This document shows positions 1 to 15,739 of a stretch of 49,823 nt of DNA, one piece after another. Source of the DNA: a virus (Duplodnaviria; Heunggongvirae; Uroviricota; Caudoviricetes). Position 1 is the first letter of the stretch. Each line of letters starts with the position of its first letter. The translations under genes were made by a program, and so were the position numbers. The notes under the pieces were generated by a model. The model saw nothing but the letters and a program-made list of their open reading frames with translations. It had not been told where the DNA came from and did not search any database. The DNA lies in IMG/VR virus record IMGVR_UViG_3300032007_001569; one strand, written 5' to 3'.

Positions 1-49
1 ATCCTCAATGTCAATACCTTTTGACAATGTTTTTTCAATTATTTTTTTG

Positions 50-160
50 CCTGTTTTCAGAAATGCGGTTTCCCCGGCGACATAATTTAGCGGTGTTTCA
101 AAATGAAGGTTTTCTGGCGCGCATGTCAGAAAAAATGCGTATTTGAAAACGAAAAACCAT
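50..160. repeat. Intergenic degenerate 25-bp motif tract A
   Basis: gttttcagaaatgcggtttcccc; gtgtttcaaaatgaaggttttctgg; consensus GTTTTYRAAAAYGNNWWTTTYCTGG. Confidence 0.7.
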
Positions 161-168
161 CGGCATAG

Positions 169-192
169 AAAAAGGCGGGATCATTGCCCGCC
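169..192 (-). terminator. Intrinsic terminator
   Basis: GGCGGG/CCCGCC stem followed by a T-run on the minus strand, directly after the stop of ORF 193-615. Confidence 0.75.
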
Positions 193-615
193 TTACTTTG
201 AATGGATGGGAAGCGCCTCGCACCAATCCAGAAGATTCGCCAGCGCCTTTTCCTTTGCGGCGGCGTGTTCTTCCTCCGTGATGCCCGTTGGATAGGCACA
301 ATAAATCGCGTGCTTGCCCTTCATATAGCGATAGCCCAGCGGCAAATTGTCTATGATTTCAGGATAATTCGCCATGAAACAGATGTGTGTCCATGAGCCG
401 GGCATGTCGAAATGAGCTTCACAACAACCGGTGGTGACATAGCCCTTTTCATTCAGGATGCGCACTTGATCCTGAATGTGCTCATCGATGAAAATGAGCT
501 GCCAAGGTGGGAAATACTCGCATGTACACTGATTGAGCCGATGGAAGCACTTCGGACAAACGAAATTATTATACGCCTGTTTGTTCCTCCGCATGGGATG
601 CGCCGCCTTTCTCAA
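193..615 (-). CDS. Hypothetical protein with N-terminal CxxC and IDE..LN.KGY.T..CCEAH motif
   Basis: ORF track; start overlaps the upstream gene stop (ATGA). Confidence 0.75.
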   Translation of the reverse strand: MRKAAHPMRRNKQAYNNFVCPKCFHRLNQCTCEYFPPWQLIFIDEHIQDQVRILNEKGYVTTGCCEAHFDMPGSWTHICFMANYPEIIDNLPLGYRYMKGKHAIYCAYPTGITEEEHAAAKEKALANLLDWCEALPIHSK

Positions 616-1169
616 ATATTGTCTTCCATGAGCTGATCGAAATAGTCAAATATGTCATCGTCGCTGTCGTTGTAGAAGATGTTGTCATCCTCTCCCTCTT
701 CTTCTGACGCAAAATCATCCAGGTCGTCAACGATATTCCCCCATCGCGCATTATCCAGCGCGTCATAGAGATATTCTACATCAATTCCGTTTTCTTCGCA
801 ACCCTGCCGGATGATTTCAAAATAATATTCTTCTGGCTCCCGCAGAGAATTTCCGCGAATATCAGTCATGACATAGACAACTGCGTCGAAGGTCTCGCCG
901 GTTTCGTCCAGGGTGACAGGGATCGTCTTGCGGATATAATAGGCGGGATAACCCTCATAGCGGTCAAGACGCGGCCAATCTTCTGGTGCAATATCCCACA
1001 CCAGAACGGGCAGAACGTGCCCCTCAGACGGGACAATATCGGCATGATACTTGAAGACAATATCCCAATCTTTGATCTTTCCGGTTCCGATGCGCTTTGA
1101 ACGGGGACAACGATTCGCCATCTGTCCAATATTCATATTTGATCCATACGCGATATAATACATGCTCAT
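612..1169 (-). CDS. Gamma-glutamylcyclotransferase (AIG2-like) family protein
   Basis: YIAYGSNM, RCP, LDRYEGYP motifs; AAGGAG RBS; acidic tail. Confidence 0.85.
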   Translation of the reverse strand: MSMYYIAYGSNMNIGQMANRCPRSKRIGTGKIKDWDIVFKYHADIVPSEGHVLPVLVWDIAPEDWPRLDRYEGYPAYYIRKTIPVTLDETGETFDAVVYVMTDIRGNSLREPEEYYFEIIRQGCEENGIDVEYLYDALDNARWGNIVDDLDDFASEEEGEDDNIFYNDSDDDIFDYFDQLMEDNI

Positions 1170-1199
1170 TCTCCTTTCACGCTTGCCCTTTTCGCGTTC

Positions 1200-1228
1200 A
1201 GTATAACTCGGTTTTGCTACATTGTCAA
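1200..1228 (-). promoter_or_regulatory. Cassette promoter P1
   Basis: TTGACA-atgtagcaaaaCCGAGT-TATACT, 17-bp spacer. Confidence 0.9.
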
Positions 1229-1247
1229 CTACTGTTTGAAATTAAAT

Positions 1248-1508
1248 TCAGGCTCTTTTTACGGCCTTCCTCCATGAGAAATGCTTTCCATCCACATTGG
1301 CGGGCGTGGTGACAAACTCAAAGTCTGAAACCTGACGGAACAATGTAGACAAAATGCCAAGGATAGACGCCGCAGCGGTAGCGCTACACCGATAGGCTTC
1401 TCTGTCGTCGTCCTTCCAGTATGCGGCAGCAGCCGCGTTTTTGTTGTATTCTGAAATCAGCTCGTCAATTACCCGATGCGCGGGAATGGTTTGAGAATGA
1501 TTAACCAT
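1248..1508 (-). CDS. Hypothetical protein
   Basis: ORF with GGAGG RBS. Confidence 0.7.
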   Translation of the reverse strand: MVNHSQTIPAHRVIDELISEYNKNAAAAAYWKDDDREAYRCSATAAASILGILSTLFRQVSDFEFVTTPANVDGKHFSWRKAVKRA

Positions 1509-1520
1509 GTTGCCCCCTCC

Positions 1521-2363
1521 TTAAATAATATCCGGCGCGCTCCAGCGCTTGTTTTTGAAATACTTCCACTCGAATGTTCCGTTGGCGACGCGCGTTTCCA
1601 CGTTCTCCAAATCTTTGAGCGCCATCATCCAGCCGCGTAGCTTCTCCTTTTCCTGTTCAGTCTTGCCAAAGAAGAATGCCCAGCGGTCAATGTCGTGCTC
1701 GATCTGCTCCACAGACCATTCCAAATCAGTCAATTCTGACTGACGCTTCAACTCCGCTTCCTCCGCCTCCACAATAGCCTTTGCGCCCGCGTAGGTGTCG
1801 TGCGCGTCACGCCAGGGCAGAGATACAAAGGGCTGATAATACTCATTGTACTGCTTTACAATGCGATAGCCATAGCGGTTATCTATTTCCGAATTAAGCG
1901 TACAATGGTCGTTGTCTTGAACGTTGACCAAATAGCCATCCTTGTACAATTCCAAAATATTATCTGGATTTTCGACGCTCAGATTCTTCGGATTTTCAAT
2001 GCCATCATCCAAGAAAATGTTATTGCTTCCAGTCCATTGGGGCACAAGGTTTGTCTTCCATGACCAGCCTTTCGGCAGCTTGCGCCATTCCGACGCGGCG
2101 GGATAATCCTTGATGGGCACACCGTCGATCTTCCGGGTGTCCTTCGGCTCGATCATCTGGAGAATGATGCCGTCCGTGTAGTTTTCTACGACGATGCCAT
2201 ACAGCACGGTCTTGCGGCACTTCGTATACCAGGGCGTCCTGGCAAGCCCGGCAAAGTAAACCACGCTTCCCGGCGCATAAATGACGCGCGGACGGTTCAA
2301 ATAATCCTCCGAATGAAAATCAAATCGGTTTGAAATGGATGATTCCGGGTTACTGCGGGGCAT
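1521..2363 (-). CDS. Hypothetical protein (~280 aa)
   Basis: Long ORF; start refined to MPRSNP by a GGAG RBS. Confidence 0.75.
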   Translation of the reverse strand: MPRSNPESSISNRFDFHSEDYLNRPRVIYAPGSVVYFAGLARTPWYTKCRKTVLYGIVVENYTDGIILQMIEPKDTRKIDGVPIKDYPAASEWRKLPKGWSWKTNLVPQWTGSNNIFLDDGIENPKNLSVENPDNILELYKDGYLVNVQDNDHCTLNSEIDNRYGYRIVKQYNEYYQPFVSLPWRDAHDTYAGAKAIVEAEEAELKRQSELTDLEWSVEQIEHDIDRWAFFFGKTEQEKEKLRGWMMALKDLENVETRVANGTFEWKYFKNKRWSAPDII

Positions 2364-2559
2364 GATAATCACTCCAATCTTTCTTCGGTCGCTCATCGTA
2401 AATCAGGGTGTAGCCGTTCATGTACTGCGTGAAGCTCTCGCGCTGGCGCTTGTCGCACCAGTTGATGGTCTCCGTTACACCATCATTCATCCTCAAGTCC
2501 GCCATGACAGCATAGCCGACATCATAAATCCTGACAGCAATCACATACTTATCAAACAT
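2350..2559 (-). CDS. Hypothetical protein
   Basis: Start refined to MFDKYV with GGGAGG RBS. Confidence 0.65.
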   Translation of the reverse strand: MFDKYVIAVRIYDVGYAVMADLRMNDGVTETINWCDKRQRESFTQYMNGYTLIYDERPKKDWSDYHAPQ

Positions 2560-2746
2560 CAATTCCCCTCCCCTTATTGCGCGCGACAAACGTAGCGGCC
2601 AGCTCACATTCAAGTTCTTCAATCCTCCGCGTGGTCGCGCCCTGGCAAATCGTCAGGATTTCCAAGGCTTCATCGCGCGTCAAAGTGTCCTTCATGACGG
2701 CGCTGACAAAAGCGTCAATCATCTTCCGCTTGCACTCATAATCCAT
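2552..2746 (-). CDS. Hypothetical protein
   Basis: First ORF after promoter P2. Confidence 0.65.
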   Translation of the reverse strand: MDYECKRKMIDAFVSAVMKDTLTRDEALEILTICQGATTRRIEELECELAATFVARNKGRGIDV

Positions 2747-2796
2747 ATGCCTTCTTTCCTTTCTTTCCGCTCGTTGAATTTTCCTTTGATGGTGCT

Positions 2797-2825
2797 AGTA
2801 TAACTCGGCACTTCTTAATTGTCAA
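2797..2825 (-). promoter_or_regulatory. Cassette promoter P2
   Basis: TTGACA-attaagaagtgCCGAGT-TATACT. Confidence 0.9.
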
Positions 2826-2859
2826 TATCTTTTTGAAATCTTTTATAAATTTCTTTTCT

Positions 2860-2985
2860 TGCGTTTTTAACAATTCCATTTTTCTGGATCGGCCTTAAAA
2901 AAGATGTGTTTTCCAAAATGATGTTTTCCTGGCACACTGGATTCATAAACGACCTGTTTTCAAGAACGGGATTTTTCTGGCAAAC
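2860..2985. repeat. 25-bp motif tract B (3 copies)
   Basis: Copies start at 2863, 2908 and 2956. Confidence 0.8.
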
Positions 2986-3031
2986 GAAAAAGAACGCGCA
3001 GCCCCAGCAGGATTACGCATTCAATCAGCCG

Positions 3032-3319
3032 TCACGCGGCCATGCTTCGCATAAGCTCTTCGGGCATTTTCCCTTCCGCCTTATCCACCAGGAAACCGCC
3101 CAGCGAAAACAGCGACAGTTTATCGAACTTCCAGTCGTAATAGGCGCGAAGACCCACAGGCGGCATGTAAACGTCTTCTTCCGACAGGCTGTAGACATTG
3201 ACCTGATAGCTTGCTTTTTCCTCATAGGCGCGCCGCATTAACCGGCGAATGCCAAAGGCATTGAAAACCGCCGAATGAACTTTTCCGCTCTCCTTCCATC
3301 TCACCAGATACCTTTTCAC
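3032..3319 (-). CDS. Hypothetical protein
   Basis: GTG start with GGAGG RBS; overlapping gene chain. Confidence 0.65.
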   Translation of the reverse strand: MKRYLVRWKESGKVHSAVFNAFGIRRLMRRAYEEKASYQVNVYSLSEEDVYMPPVGLRAYYDWKFDKLSLFSLGGFLVDKAEGKMPEELMRSMAA

Positions 3320-3507
3320 GCTATCCCCTCCAATTTTTCCATGATGAATGCCGCGCGGCCTGTCTCGCTGGAATAGCGATCTGAAATCCTCCGCGCCTGA
3401 TTTTCCGAAAAGCTCATGCCCGCGCTGAAAGACTTTGCGGGCGTGAAATCCTCCGCCATGAGAAACACAAAACCATCTTCATCAAAGCCATAGACGCCGA
3501 ACATCAC
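3316..3507 (-). CDS. Hypothetical protein
   Basis: 4-bp overlaps with both neighbours. Confidence 0.65.
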   Translation of the reverse strand: MMFGVYGFDEDGFVFLMAEDFTPAKSFSAGMSFSENQARRISDRYSSETGRAAFIMEKLEGIA

Positions 3508-3788
3508 GCTTCAACCTCCCTCATATAAGCGTCATATTCTCCACGGCTCAAAAGACTAGACTCCTTATGGAAATTAATGTCGGTCAGGCGATACTCGATT
3601 TTTTCCATTGCGCGAATATCGTCCTTCTTGCGGGCGTTGGCGTGCTTTTTTCCAAGCTCGCGTAGCTCGTCGTAAGTGATACCCCATTCTTTCCGCGCGT
3701 TGAGACGGCTCATCTTTTCCGCGTCGCCGTAGGTCATGGCCAAGTGTCCGGGATAAACGTCGCTCTTGTTATAACTCTGATTGAACAT
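3504..3788 (-). CDS. Hypothetical protein
   Basis: ORF with AAGGAG RBS. Confidence 0.7.
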   Translation of the reverse strand: MFNQSYNKSDVYPGHLAMTYGDAEKMSRLNARKEWGITYDELRELGKKHANARKKDDIRAMEKIEYRLTDINFHKESSLLSRGEYDAYMREVEA

Positions 3789-3822
3789 GGTTTTACGCTC
3801 CTTTGCTCGCTATTCGTTTTGA

Positions 3823-4128
3823 TTAAAACTTCTTCGCCACAAGCGTCATTAACTCGCAGCCAGCCGTTAAAATGCTGTCGCCGGTCACGTTGACGACATA
3901 CAGCAAATCCGGCGCGTTTATGTCTACCTCGTCCCAAATGGTGAATACTTCTTCGCCGGGCAACAGACCATGATAACGGCGCTGGAAGTCGGTAAACCGG
4001 GCGATACTCTCATGGGTCAATACCTGATAGGTGACTACAATGCGCCGCCGCTGCTCTCTGTTGCCGCCATAAGAATGGATCATCGCTTCAATGTCGTCGG
4101 CGACACACTGCATATGAAACTCACGCAT
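3823..4128 (-). CDS. Hypothetical protein
   Basis: ORF with GGAGG RBS. Confidence 0.7.
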   Translation of the reverse strand: MREFHMQCVADDIEAMIHSYGGNREQRRRIVVTYQVLTHESIARFTDFQRRYHGLLPGEEVFTIWDEVDINAPDLLYVVNVTGDSILTAGCELMTLVAKKF

Positions 4129-4131
4129 TTG

Positions 4132-4275
4132 CTAATCCTCCTTCCACTGCGTGTAAACCTCGATGGACTCACCGCTCGCGCGGATATAGCGGGCGTTGGG
4201 AATGGCGGCGGCGATCTGCCGCGCCTGTTCGATCAGTGACAAGTCCGGGTCGCGCTTGATGAAAGTAATACTCAT
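4132..4275 (-). CDS. Small hypothetical protein (47 aa, MSITFIKRDPD...)
   Basis: Hand-translated, below the ORF-track cutoff; fills the operon gap and has a GAGG RBS. Confidence 0.55.
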   Translation of the reverse strand: MSITFIKRDPDLSLIEQARQIAAAIPNARYIRASGESIEVYTQWKED

Positions 4276-4292
4276 TTTGATTGCCTCGCTTC

Positions 4293-4538
4293 CTATTTAT
4301 ATTTCGTCCAAATTGTGATGCAATCATCCTTCACCGCGAAGAAATCAACCTTCAATTTCTTCATGTACTCAATAAACTCGGAATATCCTTCAAATACATC
4401 ATTGTGAACCTCATAGCTATCTTCAAATGATAGCAACCCTATGTCTGATTCATAGGTGTAATGTTTTGTGCAGTCCTGAATCTTAACCGTCTGGTTGTTA
4501 TTTAGTGCAATAGCCTTGAACATCTGATTAACTGTCAT
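4293..4538 (-). CDS. Hypothetical protein (AT-rich gene)
   Basis: ORF with GGAG RBS. Confidence 0.65.
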   Translation of the reverse strand: MTVNQMFKAIALNNNQTVKIQDCTKHYTYESDIGLLSFEDSYEVHNDVFEGYSEFIEYMKKLKVDFFAVKDDCITIWTKYK

Positions 4539-4604
4539 TGTCTCCGTCTCCTCTTTGTCATCAGGTGGGGCGGTTTAGCCGCCGCCCTTCGGCCTCTCTT
4601 CCTA

Positions 4605-5087
4605 TTAGAACGCCGCAGCCAATTCCACGCGGGCGTCCAGCTCGATGCGCTCGCAGCCGTACTTCATACGAATCTGATTGAGCGACTTCCTACCATGAGA
4701 AACCACGCTATCCTCGGGCGCGTGCCAGTACCACGCCTTTTTCTTGCTGGCGTAGTGATAACCAGCGGCCTTCAGCACTTCGCGGTGCTCGTAGGTATGG
4801 CCGGTGATCCAAATCCAGTTGCCCACCAGCTCGATCACAAGGCCCTTGCAGGTCGCCACGGCCTGAACCGCAGCCATGAACTCGGCGGGAACTTCCTTCG
4901 CGGCCTTCGCCTGTTCGGCCTGTTCGCCGTGAACGCGGATGAACTCGACGGCCTTTTCATACTGGTTGTTAATGGCCTTCATGGTCGCCTCGTCGCCGCC
5001 CAGGTCGGGATGGTTGGCCTTGACCAAGCGCTTGTACTCGACGCGAAGGGCCTGCATGGTTCGGATTCCCTCGAAGAAGTTTTTCAT
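4605..5087 (-). CDS. J-domain (DnaJ-like) protein
   Basis: YKRLVKANHPDLGGD..MKAINNQYE J-domain with HPD motif. Confidence 0.85.
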   Translation of the reverse strand: MKNFFEGIRTMQALRVEYKRLVKANHPDLGGDEATMKAINNQYEKAVEFIRVHGEQAEQAKAAKEVPAEFMAAVQAVATCKGLVIELVGNWIWITGHTYEHREVLKAAGYHYASKKKAWYWHAPEDSVVSHGRKSLNQIRMKYGCERIELDARVELAAAF

Positions 5088-5139
5088 GGTGTGCGCTCCT
5101 TTCAGCTCGTCGGCTTGTTGTTTCCCTTGATCTGGCTGT

Positions 5140-5168
5140 AGTATAACTCGGCCTTATTCCATTGTCAA
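5140..5168 (-). promoter_or_regulatory. Cassette promoter P3
   Basis: TTGACA-atggaataaggCCGAGT-TATACT; GAGTC box 32 bp upstream of -35. Confidence 0.9.
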
Positions 5169-5234
5169 TAGCTTTATGAAATTTTATTTGTAAAGAATCT
5201 GAGTCCATCCCGGCGCGTTTCCTCCTGGCGCACG

Positions 5235-5410
5235 GCCAGAAAATCCCCATTCTTAAAAACAATACTTCTCGGCAAAAACGGCGAAAATTGCCGAAACATA
5301 TTCCAGAAAATTCCCATTCTTAAAAACGAATCACAAATGTGAAGCGGCTTACTTCGGATTTGTTACGCCTGAAAACGCGCGTGTTTGAAAATCATATTTT
5401 TCTGGCTGGG
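5235..5410. repeat. 25-bp motif tract C (mixed orientation)
   Basis: Two reverse copies (ccagaaaatccccattcttaaaaac) and one forward copy. Confidence 0.75.
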
Positions 5411-5412
5411 CT

Positions 5413-5440
5413 GGAGGGGAAGTCTCGCGGCCTCCCCTCC
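5413..5440 (-). terminator. Terminator-like hairpin
   Basis: GGAGGGGA/TCCCCTCC stem after ORF 5450-5719; U-tract is weak. Confidence 0.5.
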
Positions 5441-5449
5441 TGTCAGCTC

Positions 5450-5719
5450 TTACGCGGCGCGGTCGATGATTTCCGCCATCATGCAGATTAACGTCGCCTT
5501 GTCTTCCGGCGTGTTCTCCCGCCAGGAAAAGTCATTCGCCAGCACCGCGAAACAGAAACTTTCCTCTCCGGTGTAGGGCTTTTCACGGGGCAGATACTTT
5601 GCCAGGATGATCTCTTGCGCGGTGTCATGCTCGTTCAGGTCGGTCAGAAAAGCGTCATTCTCCATCAGGTTGGCAATCTTCGCGGCGGTCTCCGCTTTGT
5701 ACTCCAGTCCGTTAAACAT
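5450..5719 (-). CDS. Hypothetical acidic protein
   Basis: ORF with GGAG RBS. Confidence 0.7.
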   Translation of the reverse strand: MFNGLEYKAETAAKIANLMENDAFLTDLNEHDTAQEIILAKYLPREKPYTGEESFCFAVLANDFSWRENTPEDKATLICMMAEIIDRAA

Positions 5720-5737
5720 GATCCTTTCTCCCTTCGC

Positions 5738-6487
5738 TTATTTGATCGTCTTTTTGTTCTCGCTGGTGAGCAGCTTTCCCGTATTGATTCCGGCCTCTTC
5801 ACACAATGCCGTCATGATCTTGACAGCTTGCGGCCATTCGTCCGGGTGAATGAAGTCAAGCAGCGGTCTTGCCTTGCCATTCGCGCGCGTCCTGCGGGAT
5901 TCTAGGTTGATATGTCCCTTATACAACAGTCGGTCATAAAACACTTTCCAGCCCGCGCCGGTCATGCCGCCGTACCTTTTGCCAGCATAGGCCCGCGCCA
6001 GGCGATTCAAAACCATGCGCGGCTCCCAAGTGTTCGCCTCGGCGGCTAAGGCGGCGTTTGTGCTCGTCAGCTCCTTGACGCGCGTCTGTTCGTTTACCAA
6101 GGCTTGCAGCAGCTCGATCACGCTTTCCGGCCTCGTGAGCGTTTCGGTGAGCTTGTCGGGCGTCATGTACGCGCCGTGCTTTCGGATGGATGGGATCACG
6201 TCGTGTACAATCCAGCGCTTAAAGGCTTTCGCCTCCGGCTTGCGGGAACCCAGCACCAAGGAATAAAGGCCAGGTTCGCTAACAATGATTAATTCTTGAT
6301 CTCCGCCAAGGGTGTGAATTAAATTCACTCCCTTTTCGTCGTCGTCCAATCGTTCGCACGCGCGGCCAGCTTGATTGATCTCCAACGCCCTGCAAACATC
6401 CACGGCCACAAACCACGGTTCGCCGTCTCTCTCCAACGTGCGGACACTTCCGAACGATGGATTTTCAAAGATTCTTAGCTCATCCAT
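5738..6487 (-). CDS. BRO-N domain phage antirepressor
   Basis: F.N..FG.VR....GEPWFVAVDVCRAL; VSEPGLYSLVLGSRKPEAKAFKRW...VIPSIRKHGAY. Confidence 0.9.
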   Translation of the reverse strand: MDELRIFENPSFGSVRTLERDGEPWFVAVDVCRALEINQAGRACERLDDDEKGVNLIHTLGGDQELIIVSEPGLYSLVLGSRKPEAKAFKRWIVHDVIPSIRKHGAYMTPDKLTETLTRPESVIELLQALVNEQTRVKELTSTNAALAAEANTWEPRMVLNRLARAYAGKRYGGMTGAGWKVFYDRLLYKGHINLESRRTRANGKARPLLDFIHPDEWPQAVKIMTALCEEAGINTGKLLTSENKKTIK

Positions 6488-6535
6488 TTTTCAATCCCTC
6501 CATTTGTTGGTCGGTTTCCTTTGGTTCATGGCCGA

Positions 6536-6564
6536 ATTGTACTTCAATTTTTGAAGTATGTCAA
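6536..6564 (-). promoter_or_regulatory. Antirepressor promoter whose spacer is a palindromic operator
   Basis: TTGACA-17-TACAAT with TACTTCAA-aa-TTGAAGTA between and overlapping the hexamers. Confidence 0.8.
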
Positions 6565-6614
6565 CCCGGTAATATGCAACAATATTTGAAGCATATTTTA
6601 GGCAAAATATGCAC

Positions 6615-6643
6615 TTGCTTTTGAATCATATCTATAGTATAAT
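6615..6643 (+). promoter_or_regulatory. Promoter of the HTH gene
   Basis: TTGCTT-17-TATAAT; adjacent GCATATTTT-aggc-AAAATATGC palindrome. Confidence 0.7.
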
Positions 6644-6667
6644 ACAGTCAGAAGGAGGTGATGAAAA

Positions 6668-6889: not shown

Positions 6890-6919
6890 CTGGCCGTTTC
6901 TTTTTGCGCCCTCAGTTTC

Positions 6920-7085: not shown

Positions 7086-7090
7086 AGGGC

Positions 7091-7117
7091 AAAAGAAAAC
7101 CGCCCCAGGAAGGGCGG
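7091..7117 (-). terminator. Intrinsic terminator
   Basis: CCGCCC/GGGCGG stem plus T-rich run on the minus strand. Confidence 0.7.
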
Positions 7118-8388: not shown

Positions 8389-8395
8389 TTGATGG

Positions 8396-8763: not shown

Positions 8764-8777
8764 GATATAACCTCCCT

Positions 8778-8945: not shown

Positions 8946-8959
8946 TTCAGCGCCTCCCG

Positions 8960-9307
8960 TCAAAACGTCAGCCGCGCAAAGATATTCAGCGCGCGCAATG
9001 CCTTTTCCCTGTTCGCCTCGCTGATCCGCCGCCTCAAATACTTTTCAGTCTCGGCGTAGTTACCGCAGCCGGAACGCATGGCAAACTTCTTGATGAAAGC
9101 CCTGTCGCGGTCGTCGTCCACTCGAATGGCCTTCAGCTTGTCCATCTGAACGCTGAACGTACCGGAATAGCAGACGCACAGCGCCAGGAAATTTTCATGG
9201 CCTCGAATCGGCGGAACCTGCCAAATCCTGTAGCCCTCCGGGATTTTGTCTACAATCTCGAACACGTCTTCGCGGCCATAGTCGCGGTCAATGATGATCT
9301 TATCCAT
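8960..9307 (-). CDS. Hypothetical protein
   Basis: ORF with AAGGAGG RBS. Confidence 0.7.
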   Translation of the reverse strand: MDKIIIDRDYGREDVFEIVDKIPEGYRIWQVPPIRGHENFLALCVCYSGTFSVQMDKLKAIRVDDDRDRAFIKKFAMRSGCGNYAETEKYLRRRISEANREKALRALNIFARLTF

Positions 9308-9322
9308 TTTCAAATCCTCCTT

Positions 9323-9655
9323 TCAGCACCATGCGATTAACTTGTTCAGGTTGAACCGGTTGGAAGATTCCAGCGTCTTTTCCTCCAGCGTCTTGATAAC
9401 TGCCCATTTACCGGCGTTCTTCTCGCGCTCGAAGGTCTCCGCGATGTACTCGCCGGTGCCGTCGTAGTGCTTCATGTAGTAAACCCGGCGATATGTGGCG
9501 GTCGTTTCGGTCTCGCCGATCTTCTTCATGAACGCGGGATAGTCGTAACCATAAACAGGATTGTAAAGATAATTGGCAACGTCGAATTTGTAGCCGTTCT
9601 CGGTGGTGATCTTCAGCAGCTTGTTGATATACACCGGTTTAACATTGCGTGTCAT
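9323..9655 (-). CDS. Hypothetical protein
   Basis: First ORF after P5; AAGGAG RBS. Confidence 0.7.
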   Translation of the reverse strand: MTRNVKPVYINKLLKITTENGYKFDVANYLYNPVYGYDYPAFMKKIGETETTATYRRVYYMKHYDGTGEYIAETFEREKNAGKWAVIKTLEEKTLESSNRFNLNKLIAWC

Positions 9656-9708
9656 TGTTAGCGCTCCTTTCGGCTGGTCGGTTTGTTCCGTTCCCTTGAT
9701 CTGGCTGT

Positions 9709-9737
9709 AGTGTAACTCGGTTTTTCTCCATTGTCAA
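9709..9737 (-). promoter_or_regulatory. Cassette promoter P5
   Basis: TTGACA-atggagaaaaaCCGAGT-TACACT; GAGTC box at 33 bp. Confidence 0.9.
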
Positions 9738-9799
9738 CACCTTTTTGAAATTTTCTTTTGTAAAGAATGTGAGTCCTTCGCCCCTCATTCCAGGGATCA

Positions 9800-9965
9800 A
9801 TAATTCAATATTTTCAGAAATTGAAAAAAGCTGGAGGCAGTGCGTCAACTTTTCAGCGTATTTGAAAACGGGCGTTTCTGAATCACATTTCGGCTATTTT
9901 TGAAAACGTTTGTTTTCTGGTTCTGCAGACTTTTTCCGTTTTTGAAAATGCGGATTTTCTGGAAT
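9800..9965. repeat. 25-bp motif tract F
   Basis: atttttgaaaacgtttgttttctgg; gtttttgaaaatgcggattttctgg. Confidence 0.8.
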
Positions 9966-9969
9966 GGAC

Positions 9970-9999
9970 AAAAGAAAAGCCCGACTTTTCGCCGGGCTT
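9970..9999 (-). terminator. Intrinsic terminator
   Basis: AAGCCCG/CGGGCTT stem plus T-run. Confidence 0.8.
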
Positions 10000-10004
10000 G
10001 TCGG

Positions 10005-10187
10005 TCAATACAATGCGTTAAACGCCTCGATGATTTCCGCTCGGCGTGGTTCCAGGTGCTCAGGAATGCGGAAATACATGTCGCCGGTTCTGCCAAGATA
10101 AACATCAAAATCCGCTTGCTCTCCGTCCTTCAACTCCACACGCATGTAAATGTGATTCCCGTAGGTGTGCTCGGTGATTTTCCTCAT
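10005..10187 (-). CDS. Hypothetical protein
   Basis: Start refined to MRKITE with GGAGG RBS. Confidence 0.65.
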   Translation of the reverse strand: MRKITEHTYGNHIYMRVELKDGEQADFDVYLGRTGDMYFRIPEHLEPRRAEIIEAFNALY

Positions 10188-10189
10188 TG

Positions 10190-10393
10190 TCAAGCCCTCC
10201 CATACTCCATAATTTCCCACAGGTCGCCGACTCCCTCGATCTTGATTCCCAGGCTCTCAGCCGCAGCGCGCGCGGCCTCTTCGCTCTTGTAGCTCTTGCC
10301 GTCTGTCGGATTTGTGCCGGTGGCGATAACCTCAACGATACCATAGCGGCGGCGATTGCCATAGCCGTTAATCATGATGGCGTACTTTTTCAT
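10190..10393 (-). CDS. Hypothetical protein
   Basis: First ORF after P6; GGAGG RBS. Confidence 0.65.
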   Translation of the reverse strand: MKKYAIMINGYGNRRRYGIVEVIATGTNPTDGKSYKSEEAARAAAESLGIKIEGVGDLWEIMEYGRA

Positions 10394-10425
10394 GTGTCTC
10401 GGCCTCCTTCGTTTGATCTGGTTTG

Positions 10426-10454
10426 ATTGTAACTCGGCTTTTTTCTTTTGTCAA
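10426..10454 (-). promoter_or_regulatory. Cassette promoter P6
   Basis: TTGACA-aaagaaaaaagCCGAGT-TACAAT. Confidence 0.9.
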
Positions 10455-10499
10455 TAGGTTTTTGAAATTTATTTTTGTGATTTTTTTTGCGCCATTGTT

Positions 10500-10670
10500 T
10501 CCCTGTTTTCCGAAATGAGCTTTTCCTGGCGTGAGGCCCAGGAGACATGTGTGTTTGAAAATGCGCGTTTTCTGGTTGCCCCATGCCAATTTTCCGCAAT
10601 TTTGAAAAACGATCCTTTGTTGTCGTTGCCGGACAAAAAGCGCGCGTGTTTAGAAACGGGAATTTCCTGG
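10500..10670. repeat. 25-bp motif tract G
   Basis: gttttccgaaatgagcttttcctgg; gtgtttgaaaatgcgcgttttctgg; gtgtttagaaacgggaatttcctgg. Confidence 0.85.
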
Positions 10671-10676
10671 ACGGAC

Positions 10677-10705
10677 AAAAAAAGACGCAGCGCCCAGCCG
10701 CGTCT
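10677..10705 (-). terminator. Intrinsic terminator
   Basis: GACGC/GCGTC stem plus T7 run on the minus strand. Confidence 0.65.
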
Positions 10706-10738
10706 TAACTTTGTTTCCGGTCTATAACTTTGTTTGTG

Positions 10739-10999
10739 TTATGCTACATCTTCCAGCGCGCCCATACTTTCCAGCGCGAACATAAACGCAGCCGCTTCTC
10801 GGTCGCTTGAAATAATGTCGCCGCGAAATTTGACAAACTCGCCGACAAACGCGGCGAATTTTTCGTTTTTACAGGCTTCATCAAACGCCTTGACAGCTTC
10901 ATCATAACCGGCGACTCGGTCGTAGTTGTCATAAAGAAATTCGTATTCCTGATTGAATTTCTCGGCGAACTCCTGGATATTGACGTTAATAGCTTTCAT
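10739..10999 (-). CDS. Small acidic hypothetical protein
   Basis: ORF with GGAGG RBS. Confidence 0.7.
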   Translation of the reverse strand: MKAINVNIQEFAEKFNQEYEFLYDNYDRVAGYDEAVKAFDEACKNEKFAAFVGEFVKFRGDIISSDREAAAFMFALESMGALEDVA

Positions 11000-11012
11000 T
11001 GTTGCGCCCTCC

Positions 11013-11150
11013 TTATTTCATGATCGCGTCATTTTGCGCTTGCATGTCCTGCCAAATCTCGTTGGCCTCTTTGTCTAAATCCTTATAGGCGATTTCCCCG
11101 CGCCTATACAGGTCGATGGCAAGATTCACCGCGTCAGCATAAGTCCACAT
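11013..11150 (-). CDS. Small hypothetical protein (45 aa, MWTYADAVNL...)
   Basis: Hand-translated; AAGGAG RBS; first ORF after P7. Confidence 0.6.
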   Translation of the reverse strand: MWTYADAVNLAIDLYRRGEIAYKDLDKEANEIWQDMQAQNDAIMK

Positions 11151-11202
11151 GGTCAACGCTCCTTTCGGTCGCCGGTCGTTGTTGTTCCCTGTTGATGGCT
11201 GT

Positions 11203-11231
11203 AGTGTAACTCGGTTTACTTAACTTGTCAA
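11203..11231 (-). promoter_or_regulatory. Cassette promoter P7
   Basis: TTGACA-agttaagtaaaCCGAGT-TACACT; GAGTC box at 33 bp. Confidence 0.9.
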
Positions 11232-11299
11232 TAGCTATTTGAAATTTTGTTATGTTAATTCGATGAGTCATCCCCTGGTTCCTGGCGCGATCAGGAAGC

Positions 11300-11520
11300 G
11301 CACGTTTTCAGAAATGGCGTTTTTCTGGTTCTGCCTTAAACCGGACGCGCCAATAATTTCTCGTTGTTAAAACGTCCTTTTATTGAAAAAGTAATGCCCT
11401 ATAATAGGGGAAATATGAATGGCGGATTTTGCCCCAGCAGCCAAGAGTCGCACGTTTTTCAAAATTCGGTTTTCCTGGAGGCGAAGACTCCGCGTTTTTG
11501 AATATGGGATTTTTCTGCGC
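11300..11520. repeat. 25-bp motif tract H
   Basis: gttttcagaaatggcgtttttctgg and variants. Confidence 0.75.
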
Positions 11521-11524
11521 GGAC

Positions 11525-11551
11525 AAAAAGAAAAGCCGGATTGCTCCGGCT
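11525..11551 (-). terminator. Intrinsic terminator
   Basis: AGCCGGA/TCCGGCT stem plus T-run. Confidence 0.75.
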
Positions 11552-11757
11552 CAGTAAATCCAAATTTCATGCTGATAGGTTTCCCCGTCCAGGTCGATAT
11601 TTATGATCCAATCTCCTTTTTCGTCTTCCGGCTCTACATACTCATTTAACCAAATTTCAGATGTTGTTATTGCGTGGTTGATCCCTCCATGCCAACCAAT
11701 AGCCCAGGCGGACACCAGCGCGGCGACGATCAGTAAAGCGGCGGCAGCTCTTTTCAT
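11551..11757 (-). CDS. Small secreted or membrane-anchored protein
   Basis: MKRAAAALLIVAALVSAWAIGW signal/TM segment; GGAGG RBS. Confidence 0.7.
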   Translation of the reverse strand: MKRAAAALLIVAALVSAWAIGWHGGINHAITTSEIWLNEYVEPEDEKGDWIINIDLDGETYQHEIWIY

Positions 11758-11771
11758 TGTTTTATCCTCCC

Positions 11772-12047
11772 TTAATCCATATAGTTTTCTTGACGCTCCA
11801 AGATTCGGCCCTCCCAGTAGTCGGCCTCGGCGTTAAAGGGGCGACGTTCCAGGGGCGCGACGCGCAGCAGCTTGATACCATCCACCAGCAAGACGCCATT
11901 GTCAATCGTCCAGGCGTGGCGCGTGGGCGGCGTCTGATTCTTCCGGCAATAGTCCATGATCCCGTTGTATACATCCATCACATTAACCGGTGAATTAAAG
12001 GGAATTTCCATCTTCTCAATGATTCTTTCAATGTCTCGGCGTGCCAT
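11772..12047 (-). CDS. Hypothetical protein
   Basis: First ORF after P8; GGAGG RBS. Confidence 0.7.
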   Translation of the reverse strand: MARRDIERIIEKMEIPFNSPVNVMDVYNGIMDYCRKNQTPPTRHAWTIDNGVLLVDGIKLLRVAPLERRPFNAEADYWEGRILERQENYMD

Positions 12048-12078
12048 TGTGTTTTCCTCCCTCGCTTGATCTGTTTGA

Positions 12079-12107
12079 ATTGTAACTCGGTTTAATCAGC
12101 TTGTCAA
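12079..12107 (-). promoter_or_regulatory. Cassette promoter P8
   Basis: TTGACA-agctgattaaaCCGAGT-TACAAT. Confidence 0.9.
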
Positions 12108-12159
12108 TACCTTTTTGAAATTTTTCTTGAATTATTTATCTCTCTTCTTTCGTGCCAGG

Positions 12160-12420
12160 GATTGAACATTTTCCGAAACACGGTTTTTCCATCGGCATTT
12201 ACACAAATTTCCGCAGTTTTTCAATATTGCGGAATTTTGTAAAAGTGTCCGCAGTTTTTCCGGTTTTGCGGATGATTTTCCAAAGCCGGGCGCACAACTT
12301 TTCCGCGTTTTGAAATACGGGAATTTTCTGGATCGCCTCGCCAATTTTTCTTGATTTTGAAAAACGCAGACTTTCCGGCACCAGGCTCGGCGCGTTTTCC
12401 AATACGCAAATTTTCTGACG
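12160..12420. repeat. 25-bp motif tract I
   Basis: gttttgaaatacgggaattttctgg; gttttccaatacgcaaattttctga. Confidence 0.75.
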
Positions 12421-12425
12421 CGCAC

Positions 12426-12450
12426 AAAAAAGGCGGGCACGCGGCCCGCG
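12426..12450 (-). terminator. Intrinsic terminator
   Basis: GCGGGC/GCCCGC stem plus T6 run. Confidence 0.7.
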
Positions 12451-12459
12451 CTTTTTCCT

Positions 12460-12654
12460 CTACTCTTCGGTGTTTATGATCTCGCTAATCTCAATGGGCG
12501 TTTCCCTCAGAACGTCATGATTCAGCTTTTCCGCGTTCACCATGGCCATTGCTTCGCGCACTGTTTCCGCCTCGAATGATCTGTTAATGATGTTTCCTGT
12601 CGGTCTCAGCGTTTCCGGGTTTCGCTTGAAACATATTGTTTTAATAATATACAC
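12460..12654 (-). CDS. Hypothetical protein
   Basis: GTG start with GGAG RBS. Confidence 0.6.
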   Translation of the reverse strand: MYIIKTICFKRNPETLRPTGNIINRSFEAETVREAMAMVNAEKLNHDVLRETPIEISEIINTEE

Positions 12655-12669
12655 TCTTATTCACTCCGA

Positions 12670-13065
12670 TCAATCAATATAGCAGTTAATCACGTTGACA
12701 TTGTTTGCCTTGCACTTTTCCACAAGCTCGAGCCGCGTGTTGTAGCGCTCAATATCTCCGGCAAAAGCTCCGGCCAGGTCTTCACGTTCCGCCAGTCGTT
12801 TATAATAATCCATCGTTCGCAGGTCGTTAAAGTATATAATTTTTCCGTCGCAGATAATAACGCGGTTCATGGTTCCGTCGATTGTGCAGCCCCACAAACC
12901 AGCCGCGCGAACAGTCCTAGAATAGTCAATTTGTCTGTTTGGTTGCAGGTCGCAGAATTTCCAGGCGTTGCGGATTATTCCGCAAGTTTTCCCGTCGTCG
13001 TCTCGAACGGTGATTGAAGTTTTCCCGATCTTGACATGCTTTCCTTCAGCTCCGAAAATATCCAT
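12670..13065 (-). CDS. Hypothetical protein
   Basis: ORF with AAGGAG RBS. Confidence 0.7.
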   Translation of the reverse strand: MDIFGAEGKHVKIGKTSITVRDDDGKTCGIIRNAWKFCDLQPNRQIDYSRTVRAAGLWGCTIDGTMNRVIICDGKIIYFNDLRTMDYYKRLAEREDLAGAFAGDIERYNTRLELVEKCKANNVNVINCYID

Positions 13066-13078
13066 TGCGGTTTCTCCT

Positions 13079-13408
13079 TTACCTGTAGTCGCCGTCGTTC
13101 ATTTCTTCCGCCATCGCTTCACATTCTCCGCGCCAGGGGCAGCAGCCGCAGCCGGTTTCGTGCATCCCTTCCAGCGCAATGTGCAAATCACTCCAGCCGC
13201 TATAAAGGTCGTAGTCACGATTCACCGCGCGGGCGAATTTCTCCATCATTTCCGGCGTAACATCTCCGGTGTTGATTCCCGGCATTGTGAGTCCGACAAC
13301 CTCGCCTTCGCAGATTGCCAGCGCATAATCTCCGCTGTCGTCGGTATAGGGCCTGCACCAGCTCAGATTTTCCCCGTCGTGATTCTCCATGTACTCCAGA
13401 TACTTCAT
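13079..13408 (-). CDS. Acidic hypothetical protein with C-terminal CGCCPWRGEC cluster
   Basis: Start refined to MKYLEY with GGAGG RBS. Confidence 0.7.
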   Translation of the reverse strand: MKYLEYMENHDGENLSWCRPYTDDSGDYALAICEGEVVGLTMPGINTGDVTPEMMEKFARAVNRDYDLYSGWSDLHIALEGMHETGCGCCPWRGECEAMAEEMNDGDYR

Positions 13409-13456
13409 TTTCTCCGCGCCTCCGATCAATTCAAATTTTCCTTTGGGATTGACTGA

Positions 13457-13485
13457 AGTGTAACTCGGTTTATTTTTCTTGTCAA
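13457..13485 (-). promoter_or_regulatory. Cassette promoter P9
   Basis: TTGACA-agaaaaataaaCCGAGT-TACACT; GAGTC box at 33 bp. Confidence 0.9.
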
Positions 13486-13539
13486 TAGATTTTTGCAATT
13501 ATCCTTTGTAAAGATTCCGAGTCCTATTCGGCAGAATTT

Positions 13540-14080
13540 CCGGCAGAATTTCCCGCGCCAGGTTATCCATATTTTCTAATATCGCTTTTTCCTGCCAGGC
13601 GTGACAGTCTTCCGGCGTTTTCCAATATCGGCTTTTCCTGTTTCCGGTGCCAGAATTTCCATGTATTGCAAAACGATTCTTTCCGGCGATCCAGATTATC
13701 CGCGTATTTGAAAATGACTTTTTCCCGCGCGCGTCACGCCAGATTTTCCCGTTATTGAAAAACAATAATTTCCTGCGGATGATCGCCAGGAATGAAACGT
13801 TTTTGAAAATGGGTTTTTCCTGTCGGCGCGCCTCCAGAATTTCCATGTTTTGAAAAACGCATTTCTTCCGGCAGCGCGGCCAGGATGAAACGCGCGTCAT
13901 TTCTTCCGGTCAAAAAGACATTTTCCATTATTGGGATTTTCCCGCATATGTTTTTCAATTTTTCCCGGTTTTTGAAAATTTCCATTCCGGCGCTTCAGAA
14001 TTTCCGTGTATTCAAAAACGCCATTTCTTCCACGCATGATGCCAGATTTTCCCGATTTTCCAAAACGGAATTTTCCTGAC
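13540..14080. repeat. Longest 25-bp motif tract J (~540 bp)
   Basis: Repeating ccagaWtttcc..tWttgaaaaacg..Wttttcc units of about 40-48 bp. Confidence 0.85.
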
Positions 14081-14085
14081 AGGCA

Positions 14086-14113
14086 AAAAGAAAAGGCCGG
14101 GTTTTTCCCGGCC
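14086..14113 (-). terminator. Intrinsic terminator
   Basis: GGCCGGG/CCCGGCC stem plus T-run. Confidence 0.8.
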
Positions 14114-14126
14114 AGGTTTTCCTCGG

Positions 14127-14462
14127 TCATTCGTCCTTGTATTCCGCGTCTACGAAAACGATGTTTTTTTCCTCGGATTCAAGCATAATGCTTTCCTGAT
14201 TGAGCGCGGCGCGAAGCTCTCGAACCAGGGGCAGGATCTCAGCGCGCGTCACGCCAGCAACGTTAAACCGGATTGAAGGCTCACAGATTCGCGTGCCGTC
14301 CATGTGCTGATAGATGCCGTAGATGCCCTCGGTCTCCAGCGTGGCGCAGAAGTGATGCCGGTTAATGGCGTCAATCACGGTTTCGATGTAGTAGCTTTTG
14401 TCGTGCTCCTGCTTGTGTGTGTCCTGATCGAACAGGCCAACAGTGATAATGTGGTTCATCAT
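14127..14462 (-). CDS. Hypothetical protein, possibly SAM-lyase/PII-like (DUF3574-like) fold
   Basis: GIY....G....EPSIR...L...LNQESIML pattern; GAGGAG RBS. Confidence is for the gene; the fold is a guess. Confidence 0.65.
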   Translation of the reverse strand: MMNHIITVGLFDQDTHKQEHDKSYYIETVIDAINRHHFCATLETEGIYGIYQHMDGTRICEPSIRFNVAGVTRAEILPLVRELRAALNQESIMLESEEKNIVFVDAEYKDE

Positions 14463-14499
14463 GGTATTTCGCTCCTCTCGTTTCTCTCGATCTGTCTGG

Positions 14500-14528
14500 A
14501 TTGTAACTCGGTCTAGCTCGATTGTCAA
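14500..14528 (-). promoter_or_regulatory. Cassette promoter P10
   Basis: TTGACA-atcgagctagaCCGAGT-TACAAT; GAGTC box at 33 bp. Confidence 0.9.
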
Positions 14529-14634
14529 CAGGTTTTAGAAAATTTATTTCGTTAAGAATTTGAGTCGGTCTGTCATGCCAGGATTCAAGCGTTTTTGAAA
14601 ACCGGGATTTTTTGGCCGGAAGCACGGCGGGGGA

Positions 14635-15468
14635 TTAGATCCCCGCGTACTTCTTGAAGATTTTCACGATCTTCTCGGCGGCAACCTGCGCTTTGTGCAG
14701 CCGGTAGTCTCGGATCGTCGGATAGCGCCGGGCGTCTTTCGGCTCATCGTTGAAGTGCTCAACGAAGTTATTAACGACGGCCTCGGTTATCGCCTTGCAG
14801 CAGCGCACAGCGTTCATATACTGGTCAGCGTTTACGAATTTGACAAGCCTAAACTCCAGCGTGTTGTTGTGCTGTACGTTGATGAAATTGACGTGTTCGG
14901 TGGCGTAGGTTTCCATGTTAATCGGGGAGGCGTAGTAGGTAAAGCCGCGTCCGAACAGGCGCTCGGTGGCTTCCGGGTTCCGCTCCATTGCCTCGGACAG
15001 TGGGACGAATAGCGAGTTATAAAAGCGCCTGATGTAACCGATTGTCTCGGCGTTAATCATGTTTTTATGGCCGATGTGTGTATGTGTGCCGCATTCATCG
15101 CCGATTTTCAGCTCTCCAGCGTCAATCAAGCGGCCAAAAGTGACGGCGTGTTTGGTCAATGCGTTCATGCCCTGATAGATGGGGCTTTTGTACTCCACAT
15201 TAACCGTACAGTCAGAGGTGGGCAGGTATCCGTCCAGCAGGATCTCGGCGCGCGCCTTCTCGGTGGAAAAGCTGGTCTCCAGCTCCACGCCATAGGTGAA
15301 CGGGTTCACCTTCTCGGTGCCATGGCGGAAGTCGTTCTCGGTGGAATAACCCAACAGCCTATTGGCGTGAAAATCGCACATATACACGGCGCGCTCACCA
15401 CGACGGGCGGCGGTGGTCTTCACGGTTCCCATGTTCAGGCAGTTTTTGCAAGCGCAACGGATCATCAT
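14635..15468 (-). CDS. Putative amidoligase (COOH-NH2 ligase, Amidoligase_2-like)
   Basis: FTYGVELET, SDCTV..EYKSP, CGTHTHIG, TLEFRL motifs; N-terminal Cys cluster. Confidence 0.8.
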   Translation of the reverse strand: MMIRCACKNCLNMGTVKTTAARRGERAVYMCDFHANRLLGYSTENDFRHGTEKVNPFTYGVELETSFSTEKARAEILLDGYLPTSDCTVNVEYKSPIYQGMNALTKHAVTFGRLIDAGELKIGDECGTHTHIGHKNMINAETIGYIRRFYNSLFVPLSEAMERNPEATERLFGRGFTYYASPINMETYATEHVNFINVQHNNTLEFRLVKFVNADQYMNAVRCCKAITEAVVNNFVEHFNDEPKDARRYPTIRDYRLHKAQVAAEKIVKIFKKYAGI

Positions 15469-15535
15469 TTTCAGGCCCTCCATTCATTTTGTCGGTTTGG
15501 CTCGGCGCTCATCGCCGTAACCGGTTTATGGCTGT

Positions 15536-15564
15536 ATCTTAACTCGGCGACGCGCCATTGTCAA
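15536..15564 (-). promoter_or_regulatory. Cassette promoter P11
   Basis: TTGACA-atggcgcgtcgCCGAGT-TAAGAT. Confidence 0.85.
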
Positions 15565-15739
15565 CAGGTTTTTGCCAGATTTTTTCGATTTTACAAAACC
15601 TTTACAATTCGGTTCCTGGTGGGCCTGGACTGTCACGGGCGGATTTTTTCGCCTATAATAGTAGATATTCCCTCGGCAGCTTGCGCCTTTTTGCGCGATA
15701 TATGGAAGGGATTTTTGCGCCGAGTTTAATCAATGGCGC

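Follow-up and report, generated by a model that had tools for sequence, protein, structure and literature searches.

Introduction

In phages of the T4 type, promoter-early stem-loop (PeSL) cassettes place repeated early promoters and terminators ahead of orphan genes; indels and replacements arise through them, and mini-circles can result (Arbiol et al. 2010, PMC2839356; Comeau et al. 2014, PMC4122927). The SPbeta-type phages have a multi-promoter early region. Its repressor, MrpR, lacks both the first catalytic Arg and HxxR; about 10 early promoters carry the SPBRE element to which it binds (PMC10516654). The corresponding protein of phage phi3T, SroF (= MrpR, YopR), binds as a monomer to a 26-bp A-tract box, of which it reads 24 bp, at sites across the genome (bioRxiv 10.1101/2025.11.27.690993). 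Here we describe an array of repeated promoter cassettes that fills the first 16 kb of a 49,823-nucleotide stretch of viral DNA (the window; Caudoviricetes, IMG/VR record IMGVR_UViG_3300032007_001569), which is contained in a 143-kb JGI contig from a bovine sample. As a whole, the observations are probably best explained by an SPbeta-like leftward early region, made up of repeated promoter cassettes and rows of a long box, that is remodelled by recombination of the PeSL type.

Two further systems invite comparison. The host-takeover module of phage SPO1, which Stewart et al. are said to have described in 1998, reportedly holds about two dozen small genes in about a dozen operons, with strong early sigma-A promoters and terminators; to our knowledge, no box rows have been described in it. 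Integron cassettes have no promoter of their own and carry a folded attC end; IntI moves them, always at the same crossover point.

Results

The window repeats one order of elements on the minus strand, namely promoter, genes, terminator, box tract and next promoter, as a preliminary description of this DNA had proposed. The pattern TTGACA-N11-CCGAGTTA occurs in 11 exact copies, all on the minus strand, in comparison to 0.03 expected by chance: P1 (1200-1228), P2 (2797-2825), P3 (5140-5168), P5 (8084-8112), P6 (9709-9737), P7 (10426-10454), P8 (11203-11231), P9 (12079-12107), P10 (13457-13485), P11 (14500-14528) and P12 (15536-15564, the first of the leftward array), the -35 element starting at the higher coordinate of each. 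About 90 bp are common to the aligned copies, from approximately -70 to approximately +20. A GGACTCA box near -70 is present in 8 of 13 copies, whereas an UP-like AAATTTCAAAAA element directly 5' of the -35 hexamer spans -52 to -41 in every copy; the core consists of TTGACAA, a 17-bp spacer ending in CCGAGT and a TAYAMT -10 hexamer, and is followed by a fixed leader, CAGCCAGATCAAGG, that reaches to about +20. These features suggest a strong, host-type promoter of the sigma-A class. Further copies are the variant P4v (6536-6564, minus strand), which lacks the CCGAGT box and has a palindrome with 7-bp arms in its spacer, and a minus-strand promoter cut by the window start (bases 1-14), a TTGACA-17-TAAGAT variant without CCGAGT that is whole at 11151-11179 of L114, the locus left of the window. 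A promoter of the same family on the plus strand (17314-17342) differs by one mismatch, is exact in the relative L116 and heads the operon that leads to a YonO-type polymerase gene. The block as such was described correctly, whereas its end at the window edge was not: the same promoter recurs farther left, in L114 and in L121, where it is sparser and stands ahead of larger genes.

The rows in front of the promoters are built from a degenerate A-tract motif of 26-28 bp, here called the box. Its informative span is about 24 bp, close to the 25 bp of the preliminary description, and its consensus on the minus strand is approximately CCAGAAAA-N6-TTTTCAAAAACG, with the centre TTTTYRAAAA. A position weight matrix (PWM), trained on these same repeats, whose families were also found independently by a repeat search, yielded 42 non-overlapping sites of at least 20 bits, all within 1-16200, none in 16201-49823 and none in shuffled sequences. 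The boxes lie 45-600 bp 5' of promoters, 1 to 9-10 of them per gap, with spacing peaks at 40-42 and 45-48 bp and with orientation flips at times. Clear terminators were found at 8 of 12 cassette ends, weak hairpins at three and none at one; the terminators lie 60-600 bp upstream of the next promoter, with the box tracts intervening. Tandem Repeats Finder did not detect the tracts because the units are too degenerate, and an Rfam search of the array retrieved no family. The cargo amounts to 35 small genes in units of one to seven, 30 of which have no family in Pfam, PHROGs or the Protein Data Bank (PDB) sequences, and the earlier estimate of about 35 mostly unannotated genes thus holds.

Relatives were found by looking up exact proteins and by a promoter pattern of 21 bases. 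L115, L119 and L123 are about 90% identical to the window, L122 has 70-80% nucleotide identity, and L120 and L121 cover the region left of the window; population data came from contigs of four bovine-gut runs (X3-X6) from four studies. All relatives retain the promoter core and the box tracts, and cassettes are present, absent or extra in L115, L119, L122, L123 and the runs X3-X6. In L115, cassettes 8 and 7 are missing, and a hybrid promoter corresponds upstream to P8 and downstream to P6 of the window, the switch between the parents falling within the invariant stretch from CCGAGT to CAGCCA. L119 is without cassettes 9 and 8, and here the parents switch inside the centre of one box; it also has an extra cassette (143 and 70 aa) between cassettes 7 and 6, flanked by a duplicated 67 bp, terminator plus first box, and the same extra cassette is present in run X6. 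L122 has additional cassettes and opposite-strand genes, and the identity of its orthologues varies along the array from 55 to 98%, which indicates mosaicism.

The run contigs add unit-level indels in the tracts, at 13886-14009 and 11308-11369, and several contigs depart from the window sequence in mid-promoter, with loose ends near 10440, 12096 and 9754. A joint that goes back from 11215 to 9731 occurs in X3, X4 and X5, that is, in three studies, and represents the reciprocal hybrid, P6 upstream and P8 downstream; a reordering, a duplication or a circle would each account for it. The crossovers could be mapped to within identical stretches of 13-26 bp, and the population variants stem from several cattle-gut studies. 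The proposal that shared flanks allow cassettes to be gained, lost or shuffled is thus borne out by the switch in the promoter core of L115, the switch in the box of L119, the extra cassette of L119 and X6, and the 11215 to 9731 joint. The relatives do not keep a fixed content with breakpoints unrelated to the repeats; whole cassettes differ, and breakpoints lie in the flanks.

The boxes of L122 have retained 87% of the informative positions, in comparison to 58% of the uninformative ones (Fisher 2e-10), and conservation tracks information content (Spearman rho 0.75), although the alignment of repeats could inflate these values, the minimum statement being that both lineages keep the motif. 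The ordering of box positions by conservation is the same in the three closer relatives. Judged by this conservation, the boxes are shown to be under selection.

The array adjoins the side of the genome that carries a single-chain YonO-type RNA polymerase of 927 aa (window 23784-26567; Pfam RdRP, tblastn to yonO). It shares 39-40% identity with the polymerases of Clostridium phage c-st and of Enterocloster phages, and 26% with YonO of the SPbeta group. The gene order agrees with that of the SPbeta-like phage Goe12, with a leftward small-gene region, here the minus-strand block, divergent from yonO and with structural genes rightward. The phage is probably a large, SPbeta-like phage that infects Firmicutes of the cattle or ruminant gut, and it appears to be temperate. 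No comparable repeats were found upstream of the polymerase gene of Enterocloster phage PMBT24, which has a related polymerase, the block had zero megablast matches among 50,697 phage records, and a scan of viral contigs with the amidoligase protein of the array revealed no relative. The promoter pattern gave only isolated chance matches in IMG/VR and zero matches in 185,579 species genomes, in which the box itself was not searched, and therefore neither host nor prophage was identified. The parts of the phage that were read showed no arbitrium genes.

In L114, the same promoter precedes genes for a clamp-like protein and a 628-aa protein, and an operon encoding P0006 (306 aa), a 95-aa protein and a 329-aa protein. 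The 329-aa protein (L114 17715-18704, about 17 kb left of the window start) belongs to a family with at least 186 cluster representatives. Its profile aligned to Goe12 YopR by hhalign with a probability of 72% and E 3e-5, collinear from the N-terminus, and the seven best Foldseek matches of its AlphaFold model (pLDDT 94.7) were all SroF, YopR or MrpR. The best VIA-align match was DNA-bound phi3T SroF (9rd5; Z 18.6, rmsd 4.0 A over 287 residues), and YopR and MrpR came next, in comparison to Z 15.0 for 8a0a and 12-14 for generic recombinases, which ranked below all three. The likeness was seen by profile-profile and fold comparison only, since BLASTP against Goe12 YopR gave no match and a profile search of the PDB sequences did not reach 8A0A. 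Inspection of the sequence by eye suggests GFSKSTE at the position of the first recombinase Arg, and no HxxR is apparent. As modelled, the 329-aa protein has a tyrosine-recombinase fold, is close in length to this type of repressor (about 320 aa) and is a structural homologue of the master repressor SroF/MrpR of SPbeta and phi3T.

P0006 is a tyrosine recombinase encoded beside the repressor gene (L114 16421-17341, about 15 kb left of the window start). It has a Phage_integrase domain (E 3e-12) and the motifs RRVGD, HSAR and NHSS..TTRSY, with only about 50 residues in front of the catalytic domain and an 80-residue tail. The nearest phage matches are 'integrase' genes in replication modules of Streptococcus prophages (28-34% identity); the alignment to Goe12 YopP is weak (E 0.024), and matches to lambda Int and IntI4 reached E 0.07-0.15 only.

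Another contig with a repressor of this type, L127, has two promoters without CCGAGT (1405-1480 and 2517-2590) that share a different upstream element, GAAARATCRT..AA..AAGGTA before TTGACA, and one of them directly precedes the SroF-like gene. The same contig contains a Cas12f1/TnpB-like gene (485 aa, 4447-5904) and a reverse transcriptase near a DUF6273 protein (9102-10028).

Followed in the direction of transcription, the array starts with 2-3 minus-strand boxes at 16050-16113, at the edge of an AT-rich non-coding divergence region (tracts as delimited by the PWM; cassettes and terminators are all on the minus strand). Cassette 12 (14635-15468) encodes an Amidoligase_2 protein of 277 aa (Pfam 1e-6); a weak hairpin (14627-14646) lies across its stop codon and is followed by a single minus-strand box (14585-14618). 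Cassette 11 (14127-14462) encodes an acidic protein of 111 aa that is 87% identical in the distant relative L122; behind its terminator (14095-14113) lies the longest tract, 9-10 boxes of mixed orientation at 13565-14082. Two open reading frames (ORFs) of 77 and 133 aa that the source had called at 13499-14130 are probably spurious, because they are not kept in L115 or L122 and because no stop codon interrupts the box in any frame of their strand. Cassette 10 (12460-13408; 109, 131 and 64 aa), whose first-gene slot holds 77 aa, 109 aa or both in relatives, has a terminator at 12433-12449 and a tract of 4 boxes at 12152-12421, which is the other partner of the L119 crossover. Cassette 9 (11551-12047; 91 and 68 aa) is missing from L119 and precedes a terminator at 11533-11552 and 3 boxes at 11298-11521. 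Cassette 8 (10739-11150; 45 and 86 aa), missing from L115 and L119, has its terminator at 10682-10706 and a tract of 3-4 boxes at 10499-10673, which contains the L119 crossover.

Cassette 7 (10005-10393; 67 and 60 aa) is missing from L115; its terminator (9977-9999), where L119 and X6 have the extra cassette of about 960 bp, is followed by 3 boxes at 9842-9965. Cassette 6 (8396-9655; 110, 115, 55, 49 and 67 aa) is present in all relatives, with gene 3 swapped in L123; its terminator lies at about 8358-8388, ahead of 3-4 boxes at 8180-8353. Genes 1 and 3 of cassette 5 (7135-8038; 90, 87 and 124 aa) are replaced or deleted in relatives; its terminator is at 7098-7119 and its tract of 4 boxes at 6919-7087. 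Cassette 4 (5450-6487), with a Bro-N/Ant-type antirepressor of 249 aa (Pfam Bro-N 6e-22; phrog_130 Ant 9e-52) and an 89-aa gene, ends in a hairpin without T-tail (5414-5439) and is followed by 3 boxes, two of them flipped, at 5233-5408. Cassette 3 (3032-5087) has seven genes, a weak hairpin with a T-run at about 2985-3021 and 3 boxes at 2857-2983. The four genes of cassette 2 (1248-2746; 64, 69, 280 and 86 aa) belong to no family, and P1 directly follows, with neither terminator nor tract between. Cassette 1 (193-1163) encodes a GGACT/AIG2-fold protein (612-1163; Pfam GGACT E 2e-14) and a Cys-rich protein of 133-140 aa, and its terminator (172-194) is followed by 3 boxes of at least 20 bits at 47-156.

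Five cargo proteins are thus recognisable: the Amidoligase_2 protein, the GGACT-fold protein, the Ant/Bro-N antirepressor with its divergent HTH_26 regulator, and a J-domain protein. The last is the first gene product of cassette 3 (4605-5087, 160 aa; phrog_15863), which has an N-terminal J-domain with the HPD motif (HPDLGGD); its matches among the PDB sequences are J-domains (SV40 T antigens, TIM14), and Pfam missed the domain at E 0.01. From its sequence it is a candidate hijacker of DnaK. The HTH_26 (Cro/C1-type) regulator (73 aa, 6668-6889, plus strand; Pfam HTH_26 6e-10) probably controls P4v. Their common control region (6536-6667) contains the palindrome ACTTCAA-AAA-TTGAAGT in the promoter spacer and a palindrome with 9-bp arms upstream, and no box; the pair resembles a self-contained module of repressor and antirepressor within the array. 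The regulator was also considered as binder of the boxes and is less likely in that role, its own divergent promoter region having other palindromes and no box.

Host takeover or lifecycle control would be consistent with both the J-domain protein and the antirepressor, and the cargo, mostly without assigned function, is probably of a host-takeover or accessory nature. No cargo gene matched known anti-defence families, and the anti-defence role suggested for the cargo is unproven. Outside the array, on the opposite strand, the rightward early operon encodes a 92-aa protein (22638-22916) with a precomputed match to the Pfam family Tad2-like (anti-Thoeris).

Several other features were observed in the surroundings. 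Upstream of P12, at 15739-15849, the 8-bp sequence GACGACAG is tandemly repeated in about 7 copies within a doubtful 97-aa plus-strand ORF. The 1.3 kb between the divergent early promoters (15995-17300) is AT-rich (36% GC), has no called gene and contains iteron-like repeats (ATATCCCCT ... TAGGCGAA) besides several palindromes and AT-only runs; an origin or a genome-end region may lie here. The polymerase gene, a single frame in the window, is called in L115 (14011-17812) and L116 (6723-10524) as two parts of 547 and 376 aa, separated by a gene for an HNH_3 endonuclease (148 aa), which looks like an insertion of the intron or intein type. A GC-rich segment (54-58%) at 46400-49400 contains a minus-strand gene for an rve/Mu-transposase-C protein (474 aa, 47199-48623) and looks like a transposable element inserted in the phage.

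Discussion

In the mechanism that we propose, the host sigma-A RNA polymerase would start at a dozen copies of one strong promoter module, each of which would drive a short operon of small accessory genes that is mostly closed by an intrinsic terminator. Proteins would bind to the boxes, which would thereby set the activity of each unit or insulate it. As the comparison with relatives shows, whole cassettes are deleted, inserted and reordered by homologous or short-homology recombination between promoter modules or between boxes, which is possible because these elements are near-identical direct repeats.

The likeliest binder of the boxes, named here tentatively, would be the monomeric integrase-fold repressor of the phage, whose relatives read an A-tract box of 24-26 bp. 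The box rows may be operators of the SroF-like 329-aa protein, because size, asymmetry and A-tract content of the box fit the sites that SroF reads, and the spacing of 40-48 bp would let repressor monomers sit side by side. If this is true, a monomeric repressor could grade its action through operator rows of up to ten long boxes, which would be a novelty. The structural homology places an integrase-fold repressor of the SroF/MrpR type outside the Bacillus SPbeta group.

It should be noted that several points weigh against this mechanism or against parts of it. As to recombination, about half of the indels concern single genes, exchanged at start and stop codons without relation to the repeats (the slot of gene 1 in cassettes 10 and 5, gene 3 in cassettes 5 and 6, and gene 2 in cassette 3), one deletion in L123 occurred without any homology, and the enrichment of breakpoints in the flanks must in part be a survivorship effect, because selection removes breaks inside genes. 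As to regulation, the Goe12 box is single, lies over the -10 region and occurs once per promoter, whereas rows upstream of the promoters are found here, and the promoter-proximal DNA does not score as a box: examined as a hidden site, it reached -11 to +3 bits except at P12 (13.5 bits), not above background, and it has only the central TTTCAAAAA in common with the box. Furthermore, the L127 repressor is only 50% identical, yet the promoter core, the SPBRE-like position, is unchanged, a comparison that covers the promoter core only and is uninformative for the boxes, as the L127 contig excludes the array; the promoter core may serve another factor. Early timing, separate transcription and the function of the terminators are predictions from the sequence. 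Taken together, the comparisons show that the shared flanks are real recombination seams, but not the sole route of change.

Among the other explanations of the tracts, it is rather unlikely that they act without a dedicated protein, as UP-like A/T rows that attract the alpha subunit of the polymerase or shape the DNA and thereby boost the promoter. The box centre TTTTYRAAAA resembles the UP-like element that every promoter copy has at -52 to -41, and upstream A-tract DNA is said to boost early promoters of Bacillus phages, as McAllister and Achberger reportedly found for Alu156 and Bal129 of SP82. However, the boxes reach 500 bp upstream and flip their orientation, the conserved CCAG arm and the CG flank are not features of A/T tracts, and, to judge from the consensus, the A/T tracts lie 11, 5 and 11 bp apart, so that net curvature should cancel. 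It is very unlikely that the boxes bind a global regulator or nucleoid protein of the host and so link early expression to host physiology. Their palindromic A-tract centre is superficially like several Firmicute operator types, and they are kept in all relatives including L122; the CodY consensus, however, is not enriched (7 sites versus 4.9 expected), a LexA-type box (GAAC-N4-GTTC) is absent, and the promoter pattern is unmatched in the species genomes mentioned above, a search that covered this pattern and not the box.

An integron-like exchange, in which P0006 would cut and join at the boxes and move cassettes as circles, is highly improbable: P0006 has apparently intact catalytic motifs and stands under one of the same promoters, one cassette junction lies inside a box and another overlaps a box and its terminator, and the go-back joint of three runs is the junction expected of a circle, but other crossovers lie in the promoter core, the indels in the tracts are unclean and carry extra letters, the cassettes have their own promoters, the boxes have no attC-like fold (the longest tract, folded as RNA, gave no convincing structure in comparison to shuffles, z -1.96), their number per gap varies from 1 to 10, P0006 occupies the position of SPbeta YopP/SroD beside the repressor, and the joint has diverged alleles in the three studies, as a fixed rearrangement or a duplication would. 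A double use of the boxes, as operator rows for the SroF-like pseudo-recombinase and as recombination sites for the catalytically intact P0006, is equally remote; if true, it would make the array a phage-borne, promoter-carrying counterpart of integrons, in which the same DNA regulates cassettes and allows their site-specific excision and insertion.

The resemblance to integron arrays that the preliminary description had seen is thus confined to a row of exchangeable small-gene units in one orientation. Here each unit is driven by a promoter of its own, the folding of the tract is no better than that of shuffled sequence, and the crossovers lie in the promoter core, the box centre, and the terminator plus box instead of at one fixed point. 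In place of an IntI-type recombinase next to attI and a common promoter, there is, as had been stated, no recombinase in the window at all, P0006 being encoded outside.

With the SPO1 module, the array has in common small genes packed in about a dozen operons with strong sigma-A promoters in a Firmicute phage. However, no cargo homology was detected with PHROGs, and SPO1 is virulent and controlled by a sigma cascade. The roughly 30 family-less small early genes are candidates for screens for host-takeover or counter-defence functions.

The likeness to the early regulon of SPbeta and phi3T extends to the leftward early region divergent from yonO, to the recombinase-like gene and the repressor at its far end, to the presence of a structural homologue of SroF, and perhaps to the box, which is likewise long, asymmetric and of the A-tract kind and recurs near many early promoters, though here in upstream rows. 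In contrast to the Bacillus phages, there is no detectable sequence identity to the SPBRE or Phi3TRE boxes, 42 or more boxes stand in upstream rows instead of about 10 single boxes over core promoters, and the promoter core has a second conserved element, CCGAGT plus leader.

The closest parallel is to the PeSL cassettes. Common features are early promoters of the host type in many near-identical copies, A/T-rich on their upstream side and associated with terminators (11 exact copies versus 0.03 expected), small orphan genes in a plastic region (30 of 35 without family, with content that varies in relatives), insertions, deletions and replacements bounded by repeats in close relatives, and a reciprocal joint of the circle type (11215 to 9731, which also fits a duplication or reordering). 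Unlike in PeSLs, whose stem-loop belongs to the promoter motif of about 100 bp, inside or beside -35/-10, the terminator lies outside this motif and is set apart from it by rows of 26-28-bp boxes, which PeSLs lack; in addition, the operons have up to seven genes, the host is a Firmicute, and the phage has a YonO-type polymerase and is apparently temperate. The array had been put forward as a candidate for an undescribed system; instead, its architecture matches the PeSLs (PMC2839356, PMC4122927) together with the multi-promoter early region of SPbeta (PMC10516654). It is a Gram-positive counterpart of the PeSL cassettes, with a mechanism and an architecture of an already known sort, and its new elements are the box rows and what may be a link to an integrase-fold repressor outside the Bacillus phages. 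Cassette shuffling of the PeSL type, known from T4-like phages of Gram-negative bacteria, thereby extends to a gut-Firmicute phage with a YonO polymerase.

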